Positions 27,231 through 59,706 of a DNA stretch of 64,000 bases are shown one piece after another. The translations under genes and the position numbers were made by a program. The stretch spans positions 229,675 to 293,674 of the forward strand of contig JAZKIU010000001.1 of assembly GCA_040384705.1 (NCBI GenBank), given 5' to 3'. The notes below the pieces were generated by a model that was not told the origin of the DNA, ran no database searches, and worked only from the letters and a program-made list of their open reading frames with translations. Each line of letters begins with the position of its first letter. Position 1 is the first letter of the stretch. The stretch is from Patescibacteria group bacterium (GTDB lineage: Bacteria > Patescibacteriota > Minisyncoccia > Phycocordibacterales > Phycocordibacteraceae).

Positions 27231-27270
27231 ATACTAAGGGCTATTGGAAATAAAAGGGCGTAATACTTAT

Positions 27271-27969
27271 ATGGAAAAAGCAGATACTGGTTCGTTCATG
27301 GAGAAGTACATGACCCCTATCGCGGTCATAGTGGGTGCGCTTATCATCGCAGGTGCGTTCGCGTTCGGTCGCGGGGATGGCATGCCTACGCAACCAGGGG
27401 AGCAGGCAGCGAAGGCAGTTAACATCAAGGATGTGAAGGATAACGGTCCGTTCCTGGGCGATAAGAACGCGCCGGTCGTCATGGCGTACTGGTTCGATTA
27501 CCAGTGCCCGTTCTGCAAGCAGTTCGAGCAGACGGCGATGGTGCAGATATACGACACCTATGTCGCGACCGGGAAAGTGAAGATCCTCATCAAGGACTTC
27601 CAGTTCCTCGGGCCTGATTCAGAAGCAGGCGCGCTCTACTCGCGTGCCGTATGGGAGGCGCATCCAGAGCTCTATTACGAGTGGTACAAGGCGATGTTCG
27701 TCGCGCAGGACGAAGAGCATGGCGGGTTCGGCGATGAGAAGAGCGTCGATACGCTGACTCGTGGTGTCGCCGGCATCGACGGCGACCGCGTCGCAGCGCT
27801 CGTAGCGTCCAATCGCGCCAAGTACTTGGAGGCCATCGCAGCTGACCGTGCAGAAGGTTCCGCGCTTGGCGTCACCGGCACCCCAGCGATGATAGTCGGG
27901 AAGTCGCTTCTCGCAGGCGCCCAGCCGTTCGCATCGGTCGCAGCGTTGATTGATGCAGAATTGAAGTAA
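27271..27969 (+). CDS. DsbA-like thiol:disulfide oxidoreductase with a thioredoxin fold and a membrane-anchored N-terminus
   Basis: It has a CPFC active site (YWFDYQCPFCKQFE) and an N-terminal TM anchor. The start is uncertain among TTG 27244, ATG 27271 and ATG 27298. Confidence 0.8.
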   Translation: MEKADTGSFMEKYMTPIAVIVGALIIAGAFAFGRGDGMPTQPGEQAAKAVNIKDVKDNGPFLGDKNAPVVMAYWFDYQCPFCKQFEQTAMVQIYDTYVATGKVKILIKDFQFLGPDSEAGALYSRAVWEAHPELYYEWYKAMFVAQDEEHGGFGDEKSVDTLTRGVAGIDGDRVAALVASNRAKYLEAIAADRAEGSALGVTGTPAMIVGKSLLAGAQPFASVAALIDAELK

Positions 27970-27986
27970 TCAAAGACGCTTTTAAC

Positions 27987-28016
27987 AAAATGGCCTTCCT
28001 ATAGGAAGGCCATTTT
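27987..28016. terminator. Rho-independent terminator
   Basis: AAAATGGCCTTCC-TATA-GGAAGGCCATTTTG. Confidence 0.8.
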
Positions 28017-28038
28017 GCGTATACGCTATACTTCCTTT

Positions 28039-28233
28039 ATGAAAATCGAATGGAACACCGTGAACTGGTACTCGCAGGCAGTCGCTATCGTGCTCTTCGT
28101 CCTCGTGTTCGCGCTCGGGTTCTGGCTCGGGACCCAGTACCAGATGAGGGCATTCGAGAATGCCATCAAGGCCGAGCTCGAGGAGATGATGACGCAACCT
28201 GCTCCTTCTTCAGGCGAAGAAGCCGCTTCCTAG
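28039..28233 (+). CDS. Possible small membrane protein, about 64 aa
   Basis: It has one TM segment (AVAIVLFVLVFALGFWLG) then a polar tail. There is no clear ribosome-binding site. The track ORF starts at TTG 28015 inside the terminator. Confidence 0.35.
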   Translation: MKIEWNTVNWYSQAVAIVLFVLVFALGFWLGTQYQMRAFENAIKAELEEMMTQPAPSSGEEAAS

Positions 28234-28892
28234 GCCTTCTCGTTCACGCCGCGGAGGAAGAGGTATCCGCCGATGAATATGATGACGCCGCCCACGAGCG
28301 GCATGCCAATCGTGATGAGGAGCGAGCCTTCGGAGAAGTCGAGGAGCGAGCCGAAGAGGACGAGTGTCGCTGACATCACGGCCGAGAGCGGAAGCAGTAT
28401 GGAGATGAATATCGGATAGGGAAGGCGGGAGAGGCCGGTGCCGTACGAGATGAGCTCAGGGAGCGCGAAGCAGGTGAGGCACATATGGATGAAGCCTTTT
28501 ACCGTGCCTACATGCTCCACGACGCGGGACAGGAGGCCGTGCTCGTTCCCGGCTATCATCTTGCGTACGAAGGGGTACCCGAACCTGCGTGCGAGGAAGA
28601 ATGCACCCGTATATCCGAGGAAGTCACCGATGAGCACATACAGGAGCCCTGGCCAGAACCCGAAGAAGAGGCCGACGATAGGATAGAGGGGGGCGCCCGA
28701 TAGCGGGGCGATGATGACCGTCGATGCCTTGAGGAGTATGAACACGAGCGGCGCGAAGGGGCCCGACGCGAGCACGTACGCCTTCAGGGCTTCCATATCG
28801 ACGAAGAACGCTATGAGGACGAGGACGCCGATGGTGACGAGCAGCCCGATAACTCCCAACTGCTCGCTTATCTTGGCGTGGCGGATATTCAT
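28230..28892 (-). CDS. TVP38/TMEM64 (DedA-like, SNARE-associated) family membrane protein
   Basis: It has multiple TM helices and the conserved G(F/Y)xxGxxxAR motif region (FLGYTGAFFLARRFG). The start is trimmed to MNIRHAKI. Confidence 0.8.
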   Translation of the reverse strand: MNIRHAKISEQLGVIGLLVTIGVLVLIAFFVDMEALKAYVLASGPFAPLVFILLKASTVIIAPLSGAPLYPIVGLFFGFWPGLLYVLIGDFLGYTGAFFLARRFGYPFVRKMIAGNEHGLLSRVVEHVGTVKGFIHMCLTCFALPELISYGTGLSRLPYPIFISILLPLSAVMSATLVLFGSLLDFSEGSLLITIGMPLVGGVIIFIGGYLFLRGVNEKA

Positions 28893-28910
28893 GTGTATGG
28901 AGTATAAACT

Positions 28911-29327
28911 ATGGACATGGATATACGTGAATTCGAGGCGATAGCCGCAGAAGAGTGGAAGAAGGTGCCGGAGCGGTTCGCAGGCTCCGTGAAGAATGTA
29001 GCCCTCCTCATCGAAGACGAGCCGAGCGAGGCCGTACGGGAGGAAGAAGAGCTCGAGCACGAAGAGACCCTGCTCGGCCTGTATCACGGCGTTCCGCTCT
29101 CGGAGCGCGGCAGCGACTACGGCATCGGCGGCACCATGCCGGACACTATCACCCTCTATAGACTACCCATCATCGAGGAAGCGGAGGAGATGGATAGGGA
29201 ATTCCGGGATGCGATACGCATCGTGATACGCGAGACCATATGGCACGAGCTCGGCCATTATTTCGGTATGGATGAGCCGCATGTGCAGAACAGGGAGGAG
29301 GAGGGGACTAATAAGTTCGATACCTAG
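28911..29327 (+). CDS. Zincin-like metallopeptidase family protein (PF06262/DUF1025 type)
   Basis: The C-terminal HExxH-like motif WHELGHYFGMDE and the overall length match a family conserved in actinobacteria. Confidence 0.75.
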   Translation: MDMDIREFEAIAAEEWKKVPERFAGSVKNVALLIEDEPSEAVREEEELEHEETLLGLYHGVPLSERGSDYGIGGTMPDTITLYRLPIIEEAEEMDREFRDAIRIVIRETIWHELGHYFGMDEPHVQNREEEGTNKFDT

Positions 29328-29336
29328 TCTGTCAGC
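29315..29336 (+). repeat. Copy 2 of the 22-nt direct repeat GTTCGATACCTAGTCTGTCAGC
   Basis: A 22/23-nt match to 20499..20520. It overlaps the last codons and the TAG stop of the metallopeptidase gene. Confidence 0.7.
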
Positions 29337-29774
29337 TCAATTAGGCAGCTCCTTGTTGGGAGCGTACGTGTCTAGAACGCTTTCGATCATGAGGGATATC
29401 TCCTCGATCGTTGAGTCGGACTTATGGATGAATTCACGGACGCCGAGCGCGTGAGCTTTTTCGCGATCGCTTTCTGAACTGAGGTTGGAGAATACGATGA
29501 CCGGAATGTCTTTAAAGGTGGGGTCTTCTCCTTGCATGTGCTTAAGGAATTCAAACCCGGTCATGCCCGGCAACAGGATGTCGAGCAATATAACATCAGG
29601 CTTCTGCTTACGAACTTCCTCGACCGCTTTTTCACCATCAAAGGCTGAAGTAATAGCGACGCCGCGCGTCTTGAGCGCAGAAAGCTTATTGGTAAGGAGG
29701 TTCTGGAGTAGCCAGTCATCCTCGACGATGAGCAGGTGCCTGCCCGCAAGAGAGCGTTCCTCGGTAGTAGACAT
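29337..29774 (-). CDS. Orphan single-domain response regulator (CheY-like receiver only)
   Basis: The phospho-acceptor pocket is present (DD...D in LLIVEDDWLL/ILLDILLPGMTG, with K near the C-terminus). There is no output domain and no histidine kinase nearby. Confidence 0.8.
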   Translation of the reverse strand: MSTTEERSLAGRHLLIVEDDWLLQNLLTNKLSALKTRGVAITSAFDGEKAVEEVRKQKPDVILLDILLPGMTGFEFLKHMQGEDPTFKDIPVIVFSNLSSESDREKAHALGVREFIHKSDSTIEEISLMIESVLDTYAPNKELPN

Positions 29775-29914
29775 GGGTTAATTATAGCTCAGAGGGAAGG
29801 GTAGGCCCTTCCAGCAGGTGAGATGTTGGTATGACACGAGGAAGAATATAATCATTTTCCAACTATTCTGGAGAATCACTGAGGGTTACGTCCTATTCCC
29901 GAAGGTTCGAGGCA

Positions 29915-29943
29915 TTGACTTGCAAAAGGATATATGATATCTT
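29915..29943 (+). promoter_or_regulatory. Candidate sigma70-type promoter (TTGACT, 17-nt spacer, TATCTT)
   Basis: The -35 and -10 elements are separated by the canonical spacing. It sits upstream of a hairpin and terminator module. Confidence 0.4.
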
Positions 29944-29949
29944 CTATGT

Positions 29950-30076
29950 AATCGTGCGTATGAGACGAGCTGTTTACGGCTTACCTCCATCACTTGTGAT
30001 GTAGCATTTTTACAACTAAGCCGTAAACAATTCGTCTTGTGCAAGAAGAAAAGCCGCTCCCGGGAGCGGCTTTTCC
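29950..30076 (+). ncRNA. Candidate small RNA or cis-regulatory leader. It has a long imperfect hairpin (12-bp perfect arms GTTTACGGCTTA/TAAGCCGTAAAC extendable to about 19 bp) with a nested CATCAC/GTGATG mini-palindrome, and ends in an intrinsic terminator.
   Basis: The structure and terminator AAAAGCCGCTCCCGGGAGCGGCTTTTCC are read directly from the sequence. No plus-strand gene upstream could use that terminator. The downstream gene starts about 40 nt after it. Confidence 0.3.
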
Positions 30077-30117
30077 TGTGCTACCCTTACGGCCATAACC
30101 ATAGAGCGTCATTACGT

Positions 30118-30744
30118 ATGAGCATGAAGATAGTCATGTGGGTGCTGGGAGGGATCCTTATCGCGGGCGCAGGCACGTATGCAGCGATGAGTATGGACGG
30201 AGAGGCGCAGGTCGAGAAGGATACTGCCGATACCAACACTACTGGCGTTACCTCCATCTCCGCACTGCTCTCGCTTCCCATACCCCAGAAATGCGAGTTT
30301 ACGGACGAAACAGGGGCTGCGAAGACGTCCGGCACGGTATATGTCTCAGGCGGCAAGATGCGTGGCGATTTTGTCGCGAATGCCGCAGGCACCGAGTACC
30401 ATGCGCACACCATCATGGACGGTGCGACCGCGCATTCGTGGGTAGATGAGACGAAGATAGGAGTGAAGAGCGCGATGAGCGTATCGAGCGATACCGCAGT
30501 CTCGTCTAACCAGGGACTCGACGCGTCGAAGAACCTGGAATATCGCTGCGTACCATGGATCCCTGATACGGCCGTGTTCGAGCTGCCAACGAACATCTCC
30601 TTCATCGATGCTGGCATGTCCGCAGGAGCAGGAGCGAGCGGGTCGGCGGGCGCCGGAATGGACGCATCGGTGAGCGTATGCGCGCAGTGCGAGAAGGTTC
30701 CGGAAGCATACCGTGCGCAGTGCCGCGTCGCAGCGGGCTGCTAA
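30118..30744 (+). CDS. Hypothetical secreted protein with a Cys-rich C-terminus
   Basis: It has a signal or anchor sequence MSMKIVMWVLGGILIAGAGTYAA and a C-terminal CAQCEKVPEAYRAQCRVAAGC. The start is trimmed from the track ORF at 30037 to ATG 30118, after the terminator. Confidence 0.55.
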   Translation: MSMKIVMWVLGGILIAGAGTYAAMSMDGEAQVEKDTADTNTTGVTSISALLSLPIPQKCEFTDETGAAKTSGTVYVSGGKMRGDFVANAAGTEYHAHTIMDGATAHSWVDETKIGVKSAMSVSSDTAVSSNQGLDASKNLEYRCVPWIPDTAVFELPTNISFIDAGMSAGAGASGSAGAGMDASVSVCAQCEKVPEAYRAQCRVAAGC

Positions 30745-30749
30745 CGCAA

Positions 30750-30778
30750 ATAAAAAGACCGGACGCAGGGTCCGGTCG
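30750..30778 (-). terminator. Rho-independent terminator for the minus-strand small membrane protein gene
   Basis: The hairpin GACCGGAC-GCAGG-GTCCGGTC is followed by a T-run on the minus strand. Confidence 0.7.
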
Positions 30779-30793
30779 GGTATGGAGGGAGAA

Positions 30794-31123
30794 TCAGAGG
30801 TTAGTGTACGCGGCTTGCGGAAGGGGGAAGGGCGGGGTGGTGAAAGGCATAGCGGAGAGCGGGACGGATAGATTGGTGCTTCCAGCAGAAGCAGCAATAT
30901 TCGTCGCGACGCCGGCTGATATGCGTGCACCGTGCAAGAACGCGATGATAGTAGCCTCGAGTTCGCTCCATATAGCAGGAACCATCGATTGCAGGACCAA
31001 GATAAGCACCAAGAGACCGAGGGCGCGGAATATAGTCATATTCGTTGCGTTAGAGTTCGAGTAAAGGGCGCGTATGTTGGACCCCGCGTGAATGAATCCA
31101 CGCGACGACGTTCCGGCTGTCAA
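30794..31123 (-). CDS. Small membrane protein, 109 aa, likely co-transcribed with msrA. Family unknown.
   Basis: A TTG start has a perfect AGGAGG ribosome-binding site 5 nt upstream. The gene lies 33 nt downstream of the msrA stop. It has a central TM helix (IFRALGLLVLILVLQSMVPAIW). A terminator follows. Confidence 0.55.
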   Translation of the reverse strand: MTAGTSSRGFIHAGSNIRALYSNSNATNMTIFRALGLLVLILVLQSMVPAIWSELEATIIAFLHGARISAGVATNIAASAGSTNLSVPLSAMPFTTPPFPLPQAAYTNL

Positions 31124-31155
31124 AGATCCTCCTGTCCCCTAGAACACCCCTCCGC

Positions 31156-31695
31156 TTAGGAAGGTTGCGAGAGAAGCTCGGCGTACGCCTTCTGCACCTT
31201 CTGGAGCTTCGGCGCTATGACTACCTGGCAGTACGCCTGCTCAGGATGCTTCTCGAAATAGTCCTTGTGATAGTCCTCAGCAGGGTAGAAGACCGCGTTC
31301 TCCTCGATGGTGGTGACGATAGGGTCGCCGTCGGTGCTCGAAGTCTCGAGCTCACGAATGAATGCTTCTGTCTCGATTTTCTGCTCGGGCGTCGTAGGAA
31401 AGACTGCAGAGCGATACTGGGTACCAATATCGTTGCCCTGCTGATTCAGCTGCGTGGCATCGTGGGAAGCGAAGAATATCGTGAGAAGCGTGCGATACGC
31501 AACGACCGCAGGGTCGTATTCGATGCGGATGACCTCGGCGTGGCCGGTGTCTCCGACAGATACTTCTTCATAGGTCGGGTTCTCGGTGTGCCCACCCGCA
31601 TAGCCTGGTGCGACCGAAGCCACGCCCCTGAGCATTTTGAATACCGCTTCGGTGCACCAGAAGCATCCGCCGCCGAATATCGCTATCTCCTTCAT
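31156..31695 (-). CDS. msrA: Peptide methionine-S-sulfoxide reductase
   Basis: MKEIAIFGGGCFWCTEAVF carries the GCFWC active site. The gene is full length. Confidence 0.9.
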   Translation of the reverse strand: MKEIAIFGGGCFWCTEAVFKMLRGVASVAPGYAGGHTENPTYEEVSVGDTGHAEVIRIEYDPAVVAYRTLLTIFFASHDATQLNQQGNDIGTQYRSAVFPTTPEQKIETEAFIRELETSSTDGDPIVTTIEENAVFYPAEDYHKDYFEKHPEQAYCQVVIAPKLQKVQKAYAELLSQPS

Positions 31696-31717
31696 CCGCC
31701 TACTGTATCATCAGTAT

Positions 31718-32689
31718 ATGAAGAGGGCCGGAACCATACTCCTCATATTCGCTGCAGCATTCAGTCTCACGCTTTTCGCACTCAACTCCCAAAGTGTGGA
31801 GTTCAGGACCCTCACTAGCCAGGCGGGCATATTCCAGAAGAAAGAGGAGATAAAGACCGCGACGGTCCTGTTCGTGGGTGATATGATGTTCGACCGCTAT
31901 ATACGTACCGTGCTTGCCCGGAACGGGAACGCGCATGTGCTCGGTGGCGTCGGGCAGCTCTTGGCGGAAGCGGATATGAATGTCGGGAATCTGGAAGGAC
32001 CGATAACAGACAACCCCTCGCAATCACAAGGGACGGCAGTAGGTGAACTCACTAACATGCGCTTCACGTTCGCGCCGAGTGTACGGAAGCTCCTGCTCGA
32101 TTACGGCTTCAGCATGGTCTCGATTGGGAACAACCATATCCAGGATTTCGGGACCGACGGCGCGCGCTCGACTACCAAATACTTGTCCGGTGCAGGCATC
32201 GAATACGTAGGCGACCCGACCGGAGATTCTATTGAACCCGTCATTCAGGAAGTGAACGGCATACGCCTCGCATTCGTTTCGTATAGCGACTTCGTGGGCG
32301 GGGATTCTGCGCGTGCTCGTCAGGCGCTTGAAAGCGACGCGGCGCAGAGCGCGGACGCTGTCATCGTGCTCGCGCACTGGGGGAGTGAATACGAGACCGC
32401 TCCGCCCGCACGAGTACGCGAGCTCGCACGAGCATTCGCGAACGCGGGAGCGGACCTCATCATCGGCACGCACTCGCATGTTGTGGGGGAGGTGGAGGAT
32501 ATCGGCAACACTCGCGTGTATTACTCTCTTGGCAATTTCGTATTCGATCAGTATTGGACGCCGAGCGTGCGTTGCGGTCTCGCAGTCACCGCGACCTTCA
32601 TAAAGGAAGGGGATGCAACGAACACGCGGTATGCGGAAACCAACGTAGGGATGAGGAAGGACGGTGCAACCGCTCTTGGCTGCTCTTAG
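31718..32689 (+). CDS. CapA/PGA_cap-family metallophosphatase-like protein (poly-gamma-glutamate biosynthesis-type)
   Basis: It has an N-terminal signal or anchor, then the VLFVGDMMFDRY metallophosphatase motif. The C-terminal GTHSHVVGEVE and LGNFVFDQYW regions are typical of CapA. Confidence 0.8.
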   Translation: MKRAGTILLIFAAAFSLTLFALNSQSVEFRTLTSQAGIFQKKEEIKTATVLFVGDMMFDRYIRTVLARNGNAHVLGGVGQLLAEADMNVGNLEGPITDNPSQSQGTAVGELTNMRFTFAPSVRKLLLDYGFSMVSIGNNHIQDFGTDGARSTTKYLSGAGIEYVGDPTGDSIEPVIQEVNGIRLAFVSYSDFVGGDSARARQALESDAAQSADAVIVLAHWGSEYETAPPARVRELARAFANAGADLIIGTHSHVVGEVEDIGNTRVYYSLGNFVFDQYWTPSVRCGLAVTATFIKEGDATNTRYAETNVGMRKDGATALGCS

Positions 32690-33084
32690 CCTTCCTTCTC
32701 GAACGCGAGACAGACGGAATTGATGCAGTACCGCTTTCCGCCTGCTTCAGTCGGGCCGTCATCGAATACATGCCCTAGGTGCCCATCGCATTTCTTGCAG
32801 TACACCTCGGTGCGATGCATGCCGTATGTGTCGTCGGGGCGGGTACCTACGTTCTCCGCTACCGCGGGATCGGTGAACGACGGCCATCCGGTACCGGAGT
32901 CGAACTTCTGCTCGGAGGTGAATAATAGATTCCCGCAGGCCCGGCAGCGGTAGCTACCTTCCTCGTGATTCTCTACGTAGGCGCCCGAGAAGGGAGCCTC
33001 GGTCTCGCGCTCACGGAGCACCCGGTATTCCTCGGGCGAGAGCTTCTCGCGCCACTCTTCGTCTGTCTGCGGCATCGGTTCCAT
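32686..33084 (-). CDS. msrB: Peptide methionine-R-sulfoxide reductase
   Basis: SelR domain. It has two CxxC pairs (CRACGNLLF and CKKCDGHLGHVF) and the catalytic region HVFDDG. Confidence 0.9.
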   Translation of the reverse strand: MEPMPQTDEEWREKLSPEEYRVLRERETEAPFSGAYVENHEEGSYRCRACGNLLFTSEQKFDSGTGWPSFTDPAVAENVGTRPDDTYGMHRTEVYCKKCDGHLGHVFDDGPTEAGGKRYCINSVCLAFEKEG

Positions 33085-33133
33085 AGCATAAGTATACCCA
33101 TTTGCCGCCCATACGTCCGCAGGCTAGGATAGC

Positions 33134-33598
33134 TTGATGAACACCCGCGTCGGGCTCCTCGTGACATTGCTCGCACTCGCATTCCTTGGTATTGCGGATG
33201 CCTGGTATCTCTCGCTTTCGGCACTCCAGGGCGCTGCACTCTTCTGCGATGTGGGCGCGGTGCTCGATGGCTGCAACATCGTCGCGCAGAGCCCGTATTC
33301 GAAGCTCTGGGGCGTACCGCTCGCGCTCTACGGCGTCGTGTTCTACTGCCTCCTTTTCATCCTGGTTTCCGTACTCTTCGTCCGTACCCACCACCCGCTC
33401 TATCAGGCGGTCGCGGTGCTCGGCGTTCTCGGCCTCATCGCATCCCTGATATTCCTATTCATCCAGTTCGCGCTCATCAAGGCGCTCTGCATCTACTGCA
33501 TTGCGTCAGCGGTCATAGCGGCTCTCATATGCCTCATCGCCATAAGGTTATGGGCCAAGCACGCACCCGGACGCCTCAAACCCCCTGTGGTATCCTGA
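33134..33598 (+). CDS. Vitamin K epoxide reductase (VKOR) family membrane protein
   Basis: It has four or five TM helices and CxxC pairs (CDVGAVLDGC and CIYC). The topology matches VKOR. Confidence 0.8.
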   Translation: MMNTRVGLLVTLLALAFLGIADAWYLSLSALQGAALFCDVGAVLDGCNIVAQSPYSKLWGVPLALYGVVFYCLLFILVSVLFVRTHHPLYQAVAVLGVLGLIASLIFLFIQFALIKALCIYCIASAVIAALICLIAIRLWAKHAPGRLKPPVVS

Positions 33599-48103: not shown

Positions 48104-48188
48104 GGAGGCGTCGGATAGCGGTTTATTCCACCACCTTGGAAAGGTGGCATATCGAAAGGTATCGAGAGTTCGAATCTCTCCGCCTCCG
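48104..48188 (+). tRNA. tRNA-Ser with a GGA anticodon and a long variable arm. No CCA is encoded.
   Basis: The acceptor stem is GGAGGCG/CGCCTCC. The anticodon stem CCACC/GGTGG encloses the loop TTGGAAA. The variable arm is 17 nt. The T-arm is GAGAG-TTCGAAT-CTCTC, and the discriminator base is G. Confidence 0.85.
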
Positions 48189-48258
48189 CTACAATCGTTT
48201 TCTTCATACCCACCCACCGGCATAATTCCTGGCGGGTCTGAATGTATACTTCCCATAT

Positions 48259-59366: not shown

Positions 59367-59706
59367 ATGTATAGCGGACCCGGGCCATAAGCCGAATTCT
59401 GTACTCGTGTCTCCACGAGCGATGACCATCTATCTGGGACTATCGTTACCGATAGCCTCGAGCGGCGCTCCCCGAAGGGCACGGCCTTGCACAGTGGTAA
59501 GGATTTAGCCGTTTCAATCCCGCATCTCGGCGGGCCTGGCCCCGAAGGGCCTCCTTGGCTTTCGCCGCGGACGTCTCTGTTCGCACCTCGCGCCTTGCGG
59601 CGGACGGGCGTTACCCGCTACCGTGCTGCCGCACGAATGCGGCCTGTGTTCGGACTTTCCTCTACGCACCTTGCGGTACGCAGCGATCATCAGACCCGGG
59701 TCCAGA
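59365..59706 (-). ncRNA. rnpB: RNase P RNA, bacterial type A
   Basis: The minus strand carries P4 elements GAGGAAAGUCCG and ACAGAAUUCGGCUUAU. It also has GGGUAACGCCCG (P8/P9-like) and GUGCGAACAGAGA. P1 pairs GGACCCGGGUC with GGCCCGGGUCC. The length is about 340 nt. Confidence 0.85.

Follow-up and report, generated by a model that had tools for sequence, protein, structure and literature searches.

A conserved long-hairpin RNA family of Patescibacteria includes a probable stand-alone small-RNA gene in a 343-nt intergenic gap

What is encoded in the 343-nt gap that separates a response regulator gene from a gene for a Cys-rich protein in the metagenome-assembled genome of an ultrasmall bacterium (Patescibacteria)? 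The gap covers positions 29775 to 30117 of the 64-kb stretch of DNA analyzed here (the window), and a first reading made from the letters (the sequence-only reading) had seen in it a promoter, a long hairpin and a terminator that might form a stand-alone small RNA (sRNA), a leader of the Cys-rich gene or an operator for the regulator. Comparison across loci places the hairpin in a conserved RNA family that occurs in Paceibacterota/Parcubacteria-type Patescibacteria and that no Rfam model matches. The family is new and of a well-known kind, the small structured RNAs or 5′ untranslated region (5′ UTR) elements of bacteria. The favored and, on balance, probable explanation of window positions 29915 to 30079 on the plus strand is a self-contained sRNA gene, the stand-alone form of this hairpin family.

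The module opens with a promoter of the sigma70 type. The −35 hexamer TTGACT (29915–29920) is followed, after a 17-nt spacer, by the TATCTT hexamer (29938–29943) of an extended −10 element, TG-A-TATCTT (29935–29943), with the TG two bases before the hexamer. This is the promoter, in the same place, that the sequence-only reading described, and it is conserved in L013 and L016, two loci from close relatives of the window genome that were recovered from Hainich H43 groundwater. The extended −10 element is identical in both, and two bases of the spacer differ in L016. A promoter scan of 29000–31000 returned this site as the only promoter-like one. Shuffled sequence yields 1.6 such sites on average, and a single one in 2 kb is no more than chance would give; the promoter claim is therefore based on conservation and not on the scan. 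Transcription is predicted to start at about 29950.

The long hairpin downstream of the promoter was recovered by an inverted-repeat search and by folding. The repeat pairs 29963–29983 with 30017–30037 over 21 nt at 90% complementarity, and its perfect 12-bp core and the 33 nt between its arms confirm the earlier description. In the fold, the 5′ strand of a basal stem, GUAUGAGACGAGC (29958–29970), pairs with its 3′ strand, AUUCGUCUUGUGC (30030–30042), with a C-A mismatch at 29970/30030. The core helix is formed by the 5′ arm U-GUUUACGGCUUA (29971–29983) and the 3′ arm UAAGCCGUAAAC-A (30017–30029). Basal stem and core make up a helix of about 24 bp in a hairpin of about 85 nt. Between the core arms lies an apical hairpin (29985–30004) of 7 pairs with one C-U mismatch and a CUUG loop, in which the palindrome CATCAC-TT-GTGATG reported for the loop was found at 29988–30001. 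The apical hairpin is followed by an unpaired 3′ bulge, CAUUUUUACAAC (30005–30016), that faces only C29984. The plus-strand RNA from 29945 to 30085 (141 nt) folds at −58.8 kcal/mol compared with −32.0 ± 3.6 kcal/mol for 200 dinucleotide shuffles (z = −7.5), none of which folded as well. The minus strand folds equally well, so the strand assignment was drawn from the comparative data given below.

The module ends with an intrinsic terminator (30048–30079, plus strand), a 14-bp GC-rich palindrome, GAAAAGCCGCTCCC/GGGAGCGGCTTTTC (14 + 14 nt; 30048–30075), whose 3′ arm ends in UUUUC and is followed by CUGU. The sequence-only reading had called this terminator strong. The palindrome is there and is kept, apart from changes in loop and tail, in L013 and L016, but a terminator scan of 29000–31000 did not list it and the U-tract of the window is short (UUUUCC). 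The A and U tracts pair with each other, the plus strand has only UUUU before CC, and the terminator is bidirectional in shape. The U-tract is longer in the two close relatives, whose terminator tails are UUUUCUUCUUU and UUUCUUCUU. The Cys-rich open reading frame (ORF) starts at 30118, as had been noted, 41 nt past the module on the same strand.

Metagenome contigs were scanned for the two 12-nt arms spaced 20–45 nt apart, which returned ten loci. A second sampling, independent of the arm sequence, fetched the contigs of homologues of a CxxC-x17-CxxC zinc-ribbon protein (the CxxC protein) whose gene often follows the hairpin. The two samplings gave 14 further distinct copies of the hairpin and an alignment of 15 sequences. 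Pairs were counted on this MAFFT alignment (A4) and compared with 500 shuffles and with alignments in which the 3′ partners were slid by 1–3 columns. In A4, 94.5% of cells pair compared with 33–40% after sliding, both-side changes occur in 14 of 28 pairs, and none of the 500 shuffles comes up to these figures. Covariation in the long stem, named as a check by the sequence-only reading together with an Rfam scan, was found: the long helix has 23 pairs, and 9 of them changed on both sides. The basal stem (AUGAGR.../...YCUUAU) varies by compensatory substitutions. The apical hairpin has a sequence and length of its own in each lineage, yet all 5 of its aligned pairs covary, and it forms in the folds of L012, L013, L014 and L017.

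The core behaves as a near-constant block. Of its 13 pairs (the 12-bp core and the closing U-A pair), 12 are invariant or vary on one side only. The core is also near-invariant in the five copies found independently of its sequence (L021, L022, L023, L031 and L033), in which the changes are one G-C to A-U swap (L031) and U-A to U-G in three copies. The arms are 27–35 nt apart across the family, and between them every locus has a short hairpin of differing sequence followed by C-N-N-UUUYACAAC. The UUUYACAAC of the bulge is kept in 15/15 sequences, as is the GAG at 29962–29964 of the basal motif. The conservation of bulge and basal motif is independent evidence because neither was part of the search pattern. 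The window copy carries each of these features: the arms at 29972–29983 and 30017–30028 match the core exactly, the bulge lies immediately 5′ of the 3′ core arm, and the basal stem is AUGAGACGAG/UUCGUCUUGU compared with the family pattern of (A/U)UGAGR pairing with a YCUUAU-like strand. The covariance model R1, whose seed alignment includes the window, scores 87 bits on the plus strand (E = 1e-22) versus 42 bits on the minus strand. In every locus with a recognizable promoter or downstream gene, the element is oriented as on the window plus strand. This constant orientation and the presence of the bulge on one strand only identify the RNA as a plus-strand transcript.

The Rfam scan found no family at the module. 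At the Rfam 15 gathering thresholds the whole window gave RNase P RNA only, and at E ≤ 10 the 29000–31000 region gave only terminator-type matches of 14–24 bits. The best of these sub-threshold matches, STnc320, Thr_leader and ryfA, share with the module a terminator or a generic hairpin shape; the gathering thresholds are 50–80 bits, and the alignments cover the terminator and not the conserved hairpin. A scan of seven family loci at E ≤ 1 found nothing on the element except a spurious match to a miRNA precursor (E = 0.84). ARAGORN called neither a tRNA nor a tmRNA at the module site. The literature search found no description of the hairpin RNA and no function for the CxxC domain. A degenerate second copy of the hairpin upstream, suggested by direct repeats at 29829–29840 and 29855–29865, was rejected since 53 of 300 shuffles score as well in local alignment. 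For the complement of the bulge, GTTGTAAAAA, the 64 kb offered no convincing target. The 9-mer GCCGUAAAC presumably also occurs, in a different helical context, in the conserved region of 16S rRNA near position 810; a match of only nine letters is expected by chance.

Five copies of the family, those of the window, L012, L013, L014 and L016, consist of the hairpin followed by a terminator hairpin (type B). L013 and L016 share flanking genes with the window at 88–90% identity. The block homologous to the window begins at 29914 in L016 and at 29890 in L013 and ends at 30073, thus running from the −35 box to the terminator U-tract, and is 96% (L016) and 93% (L013) identical to it. By segment, 27–29 of 29 positions are identical in the −35/−10 elements, 14/14 in the 5′ tail, 82/84 in the hairpin, and 29–30 of 35 in the linker and terminator. 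The hairpin, better conserved than the flanking genes, is under purifying selection. Homology resumes only at 30789 in both relatives, so the Cys-rich gene is missing from them. On the other side of the module, which only the L016 contig reaches, about 840 nt of unrelated sequence takes the place of the response regulator gene. The module is independent of both of its neighbors. After the terminator, L013 and L016 have a second, oppositely oriented terminator and then the convergent genes of the msrA side. There is nothing downstream to regulate in cis in these two genomes because no same-strand gene follows. The sequence-only reading had proposed a plus-strand transcription unit of about 125 nt, to which the boundaries of the homology block, the −35 box and the terminator U-tract, lend support, and its suggestion of a stand-alone sRNA is favored by the persistence of the module in L013 and L016 with no gene behind it.

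The architecture is found in two further lineages. L014 and L012 have a strong GC-rich terminator hairpin 0–10 nt after the element, and L012 has a promoter (TTGACA-17-TATCTT) at the equivalent place. The basal stems of the three stand-alone lineages (the window clade, L014 and L012) differ by compensatory changes, with the variants ACGAG/UUCGU, GCGAG/GUCGC and AUGAG/UUCAU. Type B is thus a maintained form and not a one-off relic, because three lineages keep the architecture through compensatory changes. The module keeps its own promoter and terminator as a unit apart from flanking genes, whose content is in flux among strains, and it has no conserved reading frame. Taken together, these comparisons make it likely that the module is an independent sRNA gene of the hairpin family, and the sRNA is presumably expressed. 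About 60 nt upstream of the stand-alone copy of L014 (6865–6897) there is a sequence resembling a tRNA 3′-end, GTTCGATTCCGGCCCCCGCA, in which ARAGORN calls no tRNA; it may be an integration scar.

The usual context of the hairpin is the leader of a CxxC gene. In 5 of the 10 metagenome loci, the element lies 30–45 nt upstream of an ORF starting MAEYKK that encodes a CxxC-x17-CxxC zinc-ribbon protein (PF23477 at 8e-14, TIGR04272 at 2e-13), and these leaders are preceded by a promoter of the TTGAC(T)...TAGTAT type. The protein-based sampling found the hairpin, at 76–92 bits, in the 5′ UTR of 5/7 independently sampled homologues. The five that bear it (P0053, P0055, P0062, P0081 and P0091) are 43–54% identical to the L017 protein, and the two without it are more distant (P0107, 35%; P0103, 40%; loci L035 and L036). 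No further conserved structure was found in the CxxC 5′ UTRs beyond the hairpin. A 4-bp pairing of the conserved 5′ AACGUUG of these leaders with the bulge was considered and rejected; it is too short and is missing from the window.

The CxxC protein has an RGG-like N-terminus, a zinc ribbon, a coiled coil and a Lys-rich tail, a composition that suggests a nucleic acid binder. Its AlphaFold model shows a confident zinc ribbon and one long helix. A PDB sequence search with the protein returned only coiled-coil noise, and Foldseek against the PDB returned nothing below E = 1. The CxxC-x17-CxxC domain is widespread in Patescibacteria. It also occurs in Methanosarcina, and zinc binding, without a function, has been shown for it (PMC12704099).

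Several features of the CxxC loci were noted alongside the hairpin. In L031, the CxxC start codon (MPDFKK..., 1995–2003) is inside the 3′ strand of the basal stem, where the hairpin would occlude it; L023 has an in-frame upstream AUG at the equivalent place (about 2001), which was used by the gene caller. A motif, AUAACGUUG, with the palindrome AACGTT lies about 20 nt upstream of the hairpin in L015, L018, L020, L021, L023 and L033, close to the predicted transcription start of the CxxC-type leaders, and is absent from the window copy. A conserved protein of about 79 residues (WSLDQHRKKVMDWLP) with no Pfam or NCBIfam match is encoded next to the hairpin or the CxxC gene in four loci (L015 4167–4406, L022 1329–1565, L021 2594–2815 and L011 843–1055, all on the minus strand). 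In L011, the stop codon of this gene overlaps the basal stem, and the hairpin is located between it and a PAP2 gene. The 79-residue protein is a second candidate partner of the RNA. A cold-shock-domain gene is convergent to the CxxC gene in three loci (L015 5431–5631, L021 3007–3204 and L022 2705–2905, all on the minus strand), a hint that cold shock or RNA chaperoning is the setting in which the CxxC protein and its leader work.

How might such an RNA act? The sigma70-type promoter would drive a transcript of about 125–130 nt with a short 5′ tail, a long bipartite hairpin and an intrinsic terminator, and the hairpin combines a basal stem that covaries, a 12-bp core that hardly varies, the conserved bulge of 12 nt on the 3′ side and a variable apical hairpin. 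The simplest reading of the invariant helix and bulge would be a sequence-specific protein-binding site. A macromolecular binding site, as opposed to a ligand pocket or a thermodynamic element, is suggested because helix and bulge stay constant with an associated protein that diverges down to about 45% identity. In cis, the hairpin would serve as a feedback operator on the CxxC mRNA and repress it. In trans, the window copy would be a decoy or scaffold to which the same partner binds; the most plausible candidates are the CxxC protein and other RNA-binding proteins. This operator and decoy mechanism is offered tentatively, and on balance it is doubtful. It is a fairly speculative further step, with a lower likelihood still, to take the hairpin for the cognate RNA ligand of the CxxC-x17-CxxC family, a lineage-specific RNA-protein module whose operator was spun off in some genomes as a titrating sRNA.

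Known systems offer parallels to both halves of this mechanism. Autoregulatory leaders, such as those of ribosomal protein operons, the thrS operator and the cold box of the cspA 5′ UTR, likewise have a structured element that follows the promoter and precedes the start codon in the genes of a single protein family. The sequence-conserved helix and loop nucleotides similarly suggest recognition by a protein, the start codon of L031 falls within the stem, and a cold-shock-domain gene adjoins the CxxC gene in three loci. The hairpin family differs from these leaders in that it also occurs as a free-standing gene equipped with promoter and terminator, and in one locus (L011) two unrelated genes flank it; it matches no Rfam leader family, and RNA binding by the CxxC protein is putative. 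CsrB/RsmZ, which bind CsrA, and 6S RNA, which binds RNA polymerase, resemble the window copy as stand-alone sRNAs that end in a terminator. The conserved part of the hairpin RNA duplicates an mRNA leader element much as the GGA hairpins of CsrB duplicate those of CsrA-regulated leaders. CsrB and RsmZ have many repeats, whereas the hairpin RNA has a single site and its partner is only proposed, and there is no similarity in sequence or structure and no Rfam match to the Csr/Rsm or 6S RNAs. Y RNAs, the partners of Ro60 (Rsr), also have a long stem formed by their 5′ and 3′ ends with a conserved helix, a bulge and a variable distal part, and their genes are often beside that of the protein. However, no TROVE/Ro60 gene was seen near any copy of the hairpin, which has no tRNA-like domain and no match to the Rfam Y RNA family. 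By analogy, the hairpin RNA may work like an autoregulatory leader operator combined with a protein-sponging sRNA, and it belongs to none of the families described so far.

Several observations weigh against the favored explanation. L013 and L016 are such close relatives of the window that their conservation spans little evolutionary time. L012 and L014 have same-strand genes past their terminators. The invariance of the core was imposed by the search pattern in 10/15 sequences, and five copies test it independently. No CxxC-x17-CxxC domain is encoded in the 64-kb window, where the hairpin is not in the 5′ UTR of such a gene, and none of the best 120 of 295 clusters of CxxC homologues is on a 640-kb contig like that of the window; this genome may lack the proposed partner. 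The PDB and fold searches were uninformative on the CxxC protein as a putative RNA binder. The U-tract of the window terminator is short and there is no other promoter-like site before the Cys-rich gene, so read-through may place the module in the 5′ leader of that gene in this genome.

The last point leads to the first alternative, an attenuator or riboswitch-type leader in which the hairpin would sense a ligand, a protein or temperature and set termination versus read-through at 30048–30076 to control the gene at 30118. The module is on the same strand as that gene and holds the only promoter-like site upstream of it, the weak U-tract would permit read-through, and the stand-alone copies of L012 and L014 also precede same-strand genes. 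Moreover, the hairpin precedes a variety of genes and may or may not be followed by a terminator, as is usual for a cis-regulatory RNA class. These points are opposed by the retention of promoter, hairpin and terminator in L013 and L016, where no same-strand gene follows. A scan of genome collections for the Cys-rich gene found only three distant loci; the family model finds no hairpin at its closest homologues, which are 53, 49 and 47% identical (L006, L007 and L008–L010, respectively), and the short gap between the divergent regulator and the Cys-rich homologue in L006 has none. The idea of a conserved leader of the Cys-rich gene, raised by the sequence-only reading, has to be given up on these grounds. 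The genes downstream elsewhere, TatD (L012), peptidoglycan-binding (L014), PAP2 (L011) and CxxC, share no function. Reading of the window, L013, L014 and L012 sequences and folds revealed no conserved antiterminator pairing, a negative to which no dedicated search contributed; an AAGCCG that core and terminator share in the window is missing from L014. A 12-bp helix of invariant sequence would also be unusual in a ligand pocket. This alternative is unlikely. A dual-hairpin antiterminator regulated by an ANTAR protein was rejected: the regulator has no output domain, and the RNA forms a single long hairpin whose apical loop has 4 nt.

A second alternative is an element for RNase III-type processing or mRNA stability, in which the helix of about 24 bp would be a nuclease site or a 5′ stabilizer and the window copy a leftover leader. 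The helix is roughly two turns long and is near the 5′ end of the CxxC mRNAs, and in the rnc and pnp leaders of Escherichia coli about two helical turns is the length that RNase III needs. Neither RNase III nor 5′ stabilizers require an invariant sequence or a bulge, however, and the stand-alone copies come with a promoter and a terminator and are kept by compensatory changes in three lineages, which makes this explanation quite improbable.

It is less probable still that the module is a decaying remnant, the former 5′ UTR of a lost CxxC gene with no present function. Such a history would fit the usual CxxC context, the lack of a CxxC gene in the window and the flux of neighboring gene content among strains. 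It does not fit a hairpin with 82/84 identical positions in three strains, a homology block bounded exactly by the promoter and the terminator, or a structure that is intact by its z score, and the independent type B lineages, each with a terminator, keep their pairing by compensatory changes.

A DNA-level element has a very small chance of being correct, be it an operator for the regulator acting with a partner, a site for another dimeric factor, or a hairpin of the attC, REP or MITE type. The perfect 12-bp inverted repeat with its nested palindrome, the adjoining response regulator and the variation of flanking genes between strains had made it worth considering. The arm spacing of 27–35 nt, an 8-bp range, would rotate the half-sites out of phase, both the inner hairpin and the basal stem covary, the conserved bulge is strand-specific, and the element invariably has a promoter on one side and a gene on the other, in a constant orientation. 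The regulator consists of a receiver domain alone and its gene is replaced in L016, and the operator for it suggested by the sequence-only reading is not borne out. The element is present once in the 64 kb (by arm sequence and by R1) and once per fetched locus, no integrase or transposase gene adjoins it, and searches of viral contigs (with two patterns) and of phage and plasmid records did not find it, apart from one terminator-like match.

Finally, an upstream ORF or small toxic peptide over the 5′ arm has practically no chance of explaining the module: the ATG at 29960 does open a frame of 14 codons (MRRAVYGLPPSLVM), as had been pointed out, but it has no Shine-Dalgarno sequence, the frame reads AUG AGA UAA in most family members with AUU and AUC for AUG in L011 and L012, and the peptide sequence is not conserved.

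The genes on either side of the module have features of their own. The response regulator (29337–29774, minus strand) has 145 residues and matches only PF00072, over residues 15–119. The membrane-anchored Cys-rich protein (30118–30744, plus strand) is identical to NCBI V4681_01610 and has no Pfam match. Its family numbers about 48 relatives, those named being from Patescibacteria, in which C59 and C144 are invariant and C191 and C202 are conserved at at least 90%; C188, C191, C202 and C208 are invariant in the seven closest members. The more distant locus L006 again has genes for a regulator and a Cys-rich homologue side by side in divergent orientation, and a HisKA/HATPase kinase adjoins them. 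Regulator and Cys-rich protein may function together as a pair that has nothing to do with the RNA. Genes for thiol/disulfide chemistry and methionine sulfoxide repair, encoding a DsbA-like thioredoxin, MsrA, MsrB and VKOR, surround the locus (27244–33598). The Cys-rich gene and msrA are separated by 410 nt, within which the stretch 30757–31123 contains a minus-strand ORF at 30794–31039 (if it starts at MTIFRALGLLVLILV) that encodes a hydrophobic helix. This ORF is also present in L013 and L016, is missing from the gene calls of the matching Logan contig, and may be an unannotated small membrane protein gene cotranscribed with msrA; a good minus-strand terminator is located at 30777–30757. Elsewhere in the window, the class A bacterial RNase P RNA (59372–59703, minus strand; 120 bits, E = 3e-36) is the sole Rfam family above threshold, and tRNA-Ser (GGA) at 48104–48189 on the plus strand is the only tRNA that ARAGORN calls in the 64 kb.

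New RNA motifs are found regularly, and Patescibacteria have tiny genomes from which, to our knowledge, almost no regulatory RNA has been characterized. The hairpin adds to them a structured RNA family that is backed by covariation and occurs in two arrangements, as an mRNA leader and as a probable free-standing sRNA gene. For annotation, the favored explanation would mean that there is a gene in 343 nt taken to be “intergenic”. The occurrence of both leader and stand-alone copies may be a case, found in nature, of a cis operator turning into a trans-acting RNA. The association with the CxxC gene provides a testable handle on a zinc-binding domain that has no known function. If the hairpin is indeed the ligand of this protein family, it would give the CxxC-x17-CxxC zinc domain its first function, sequence-specific RNA binding and feedback control.

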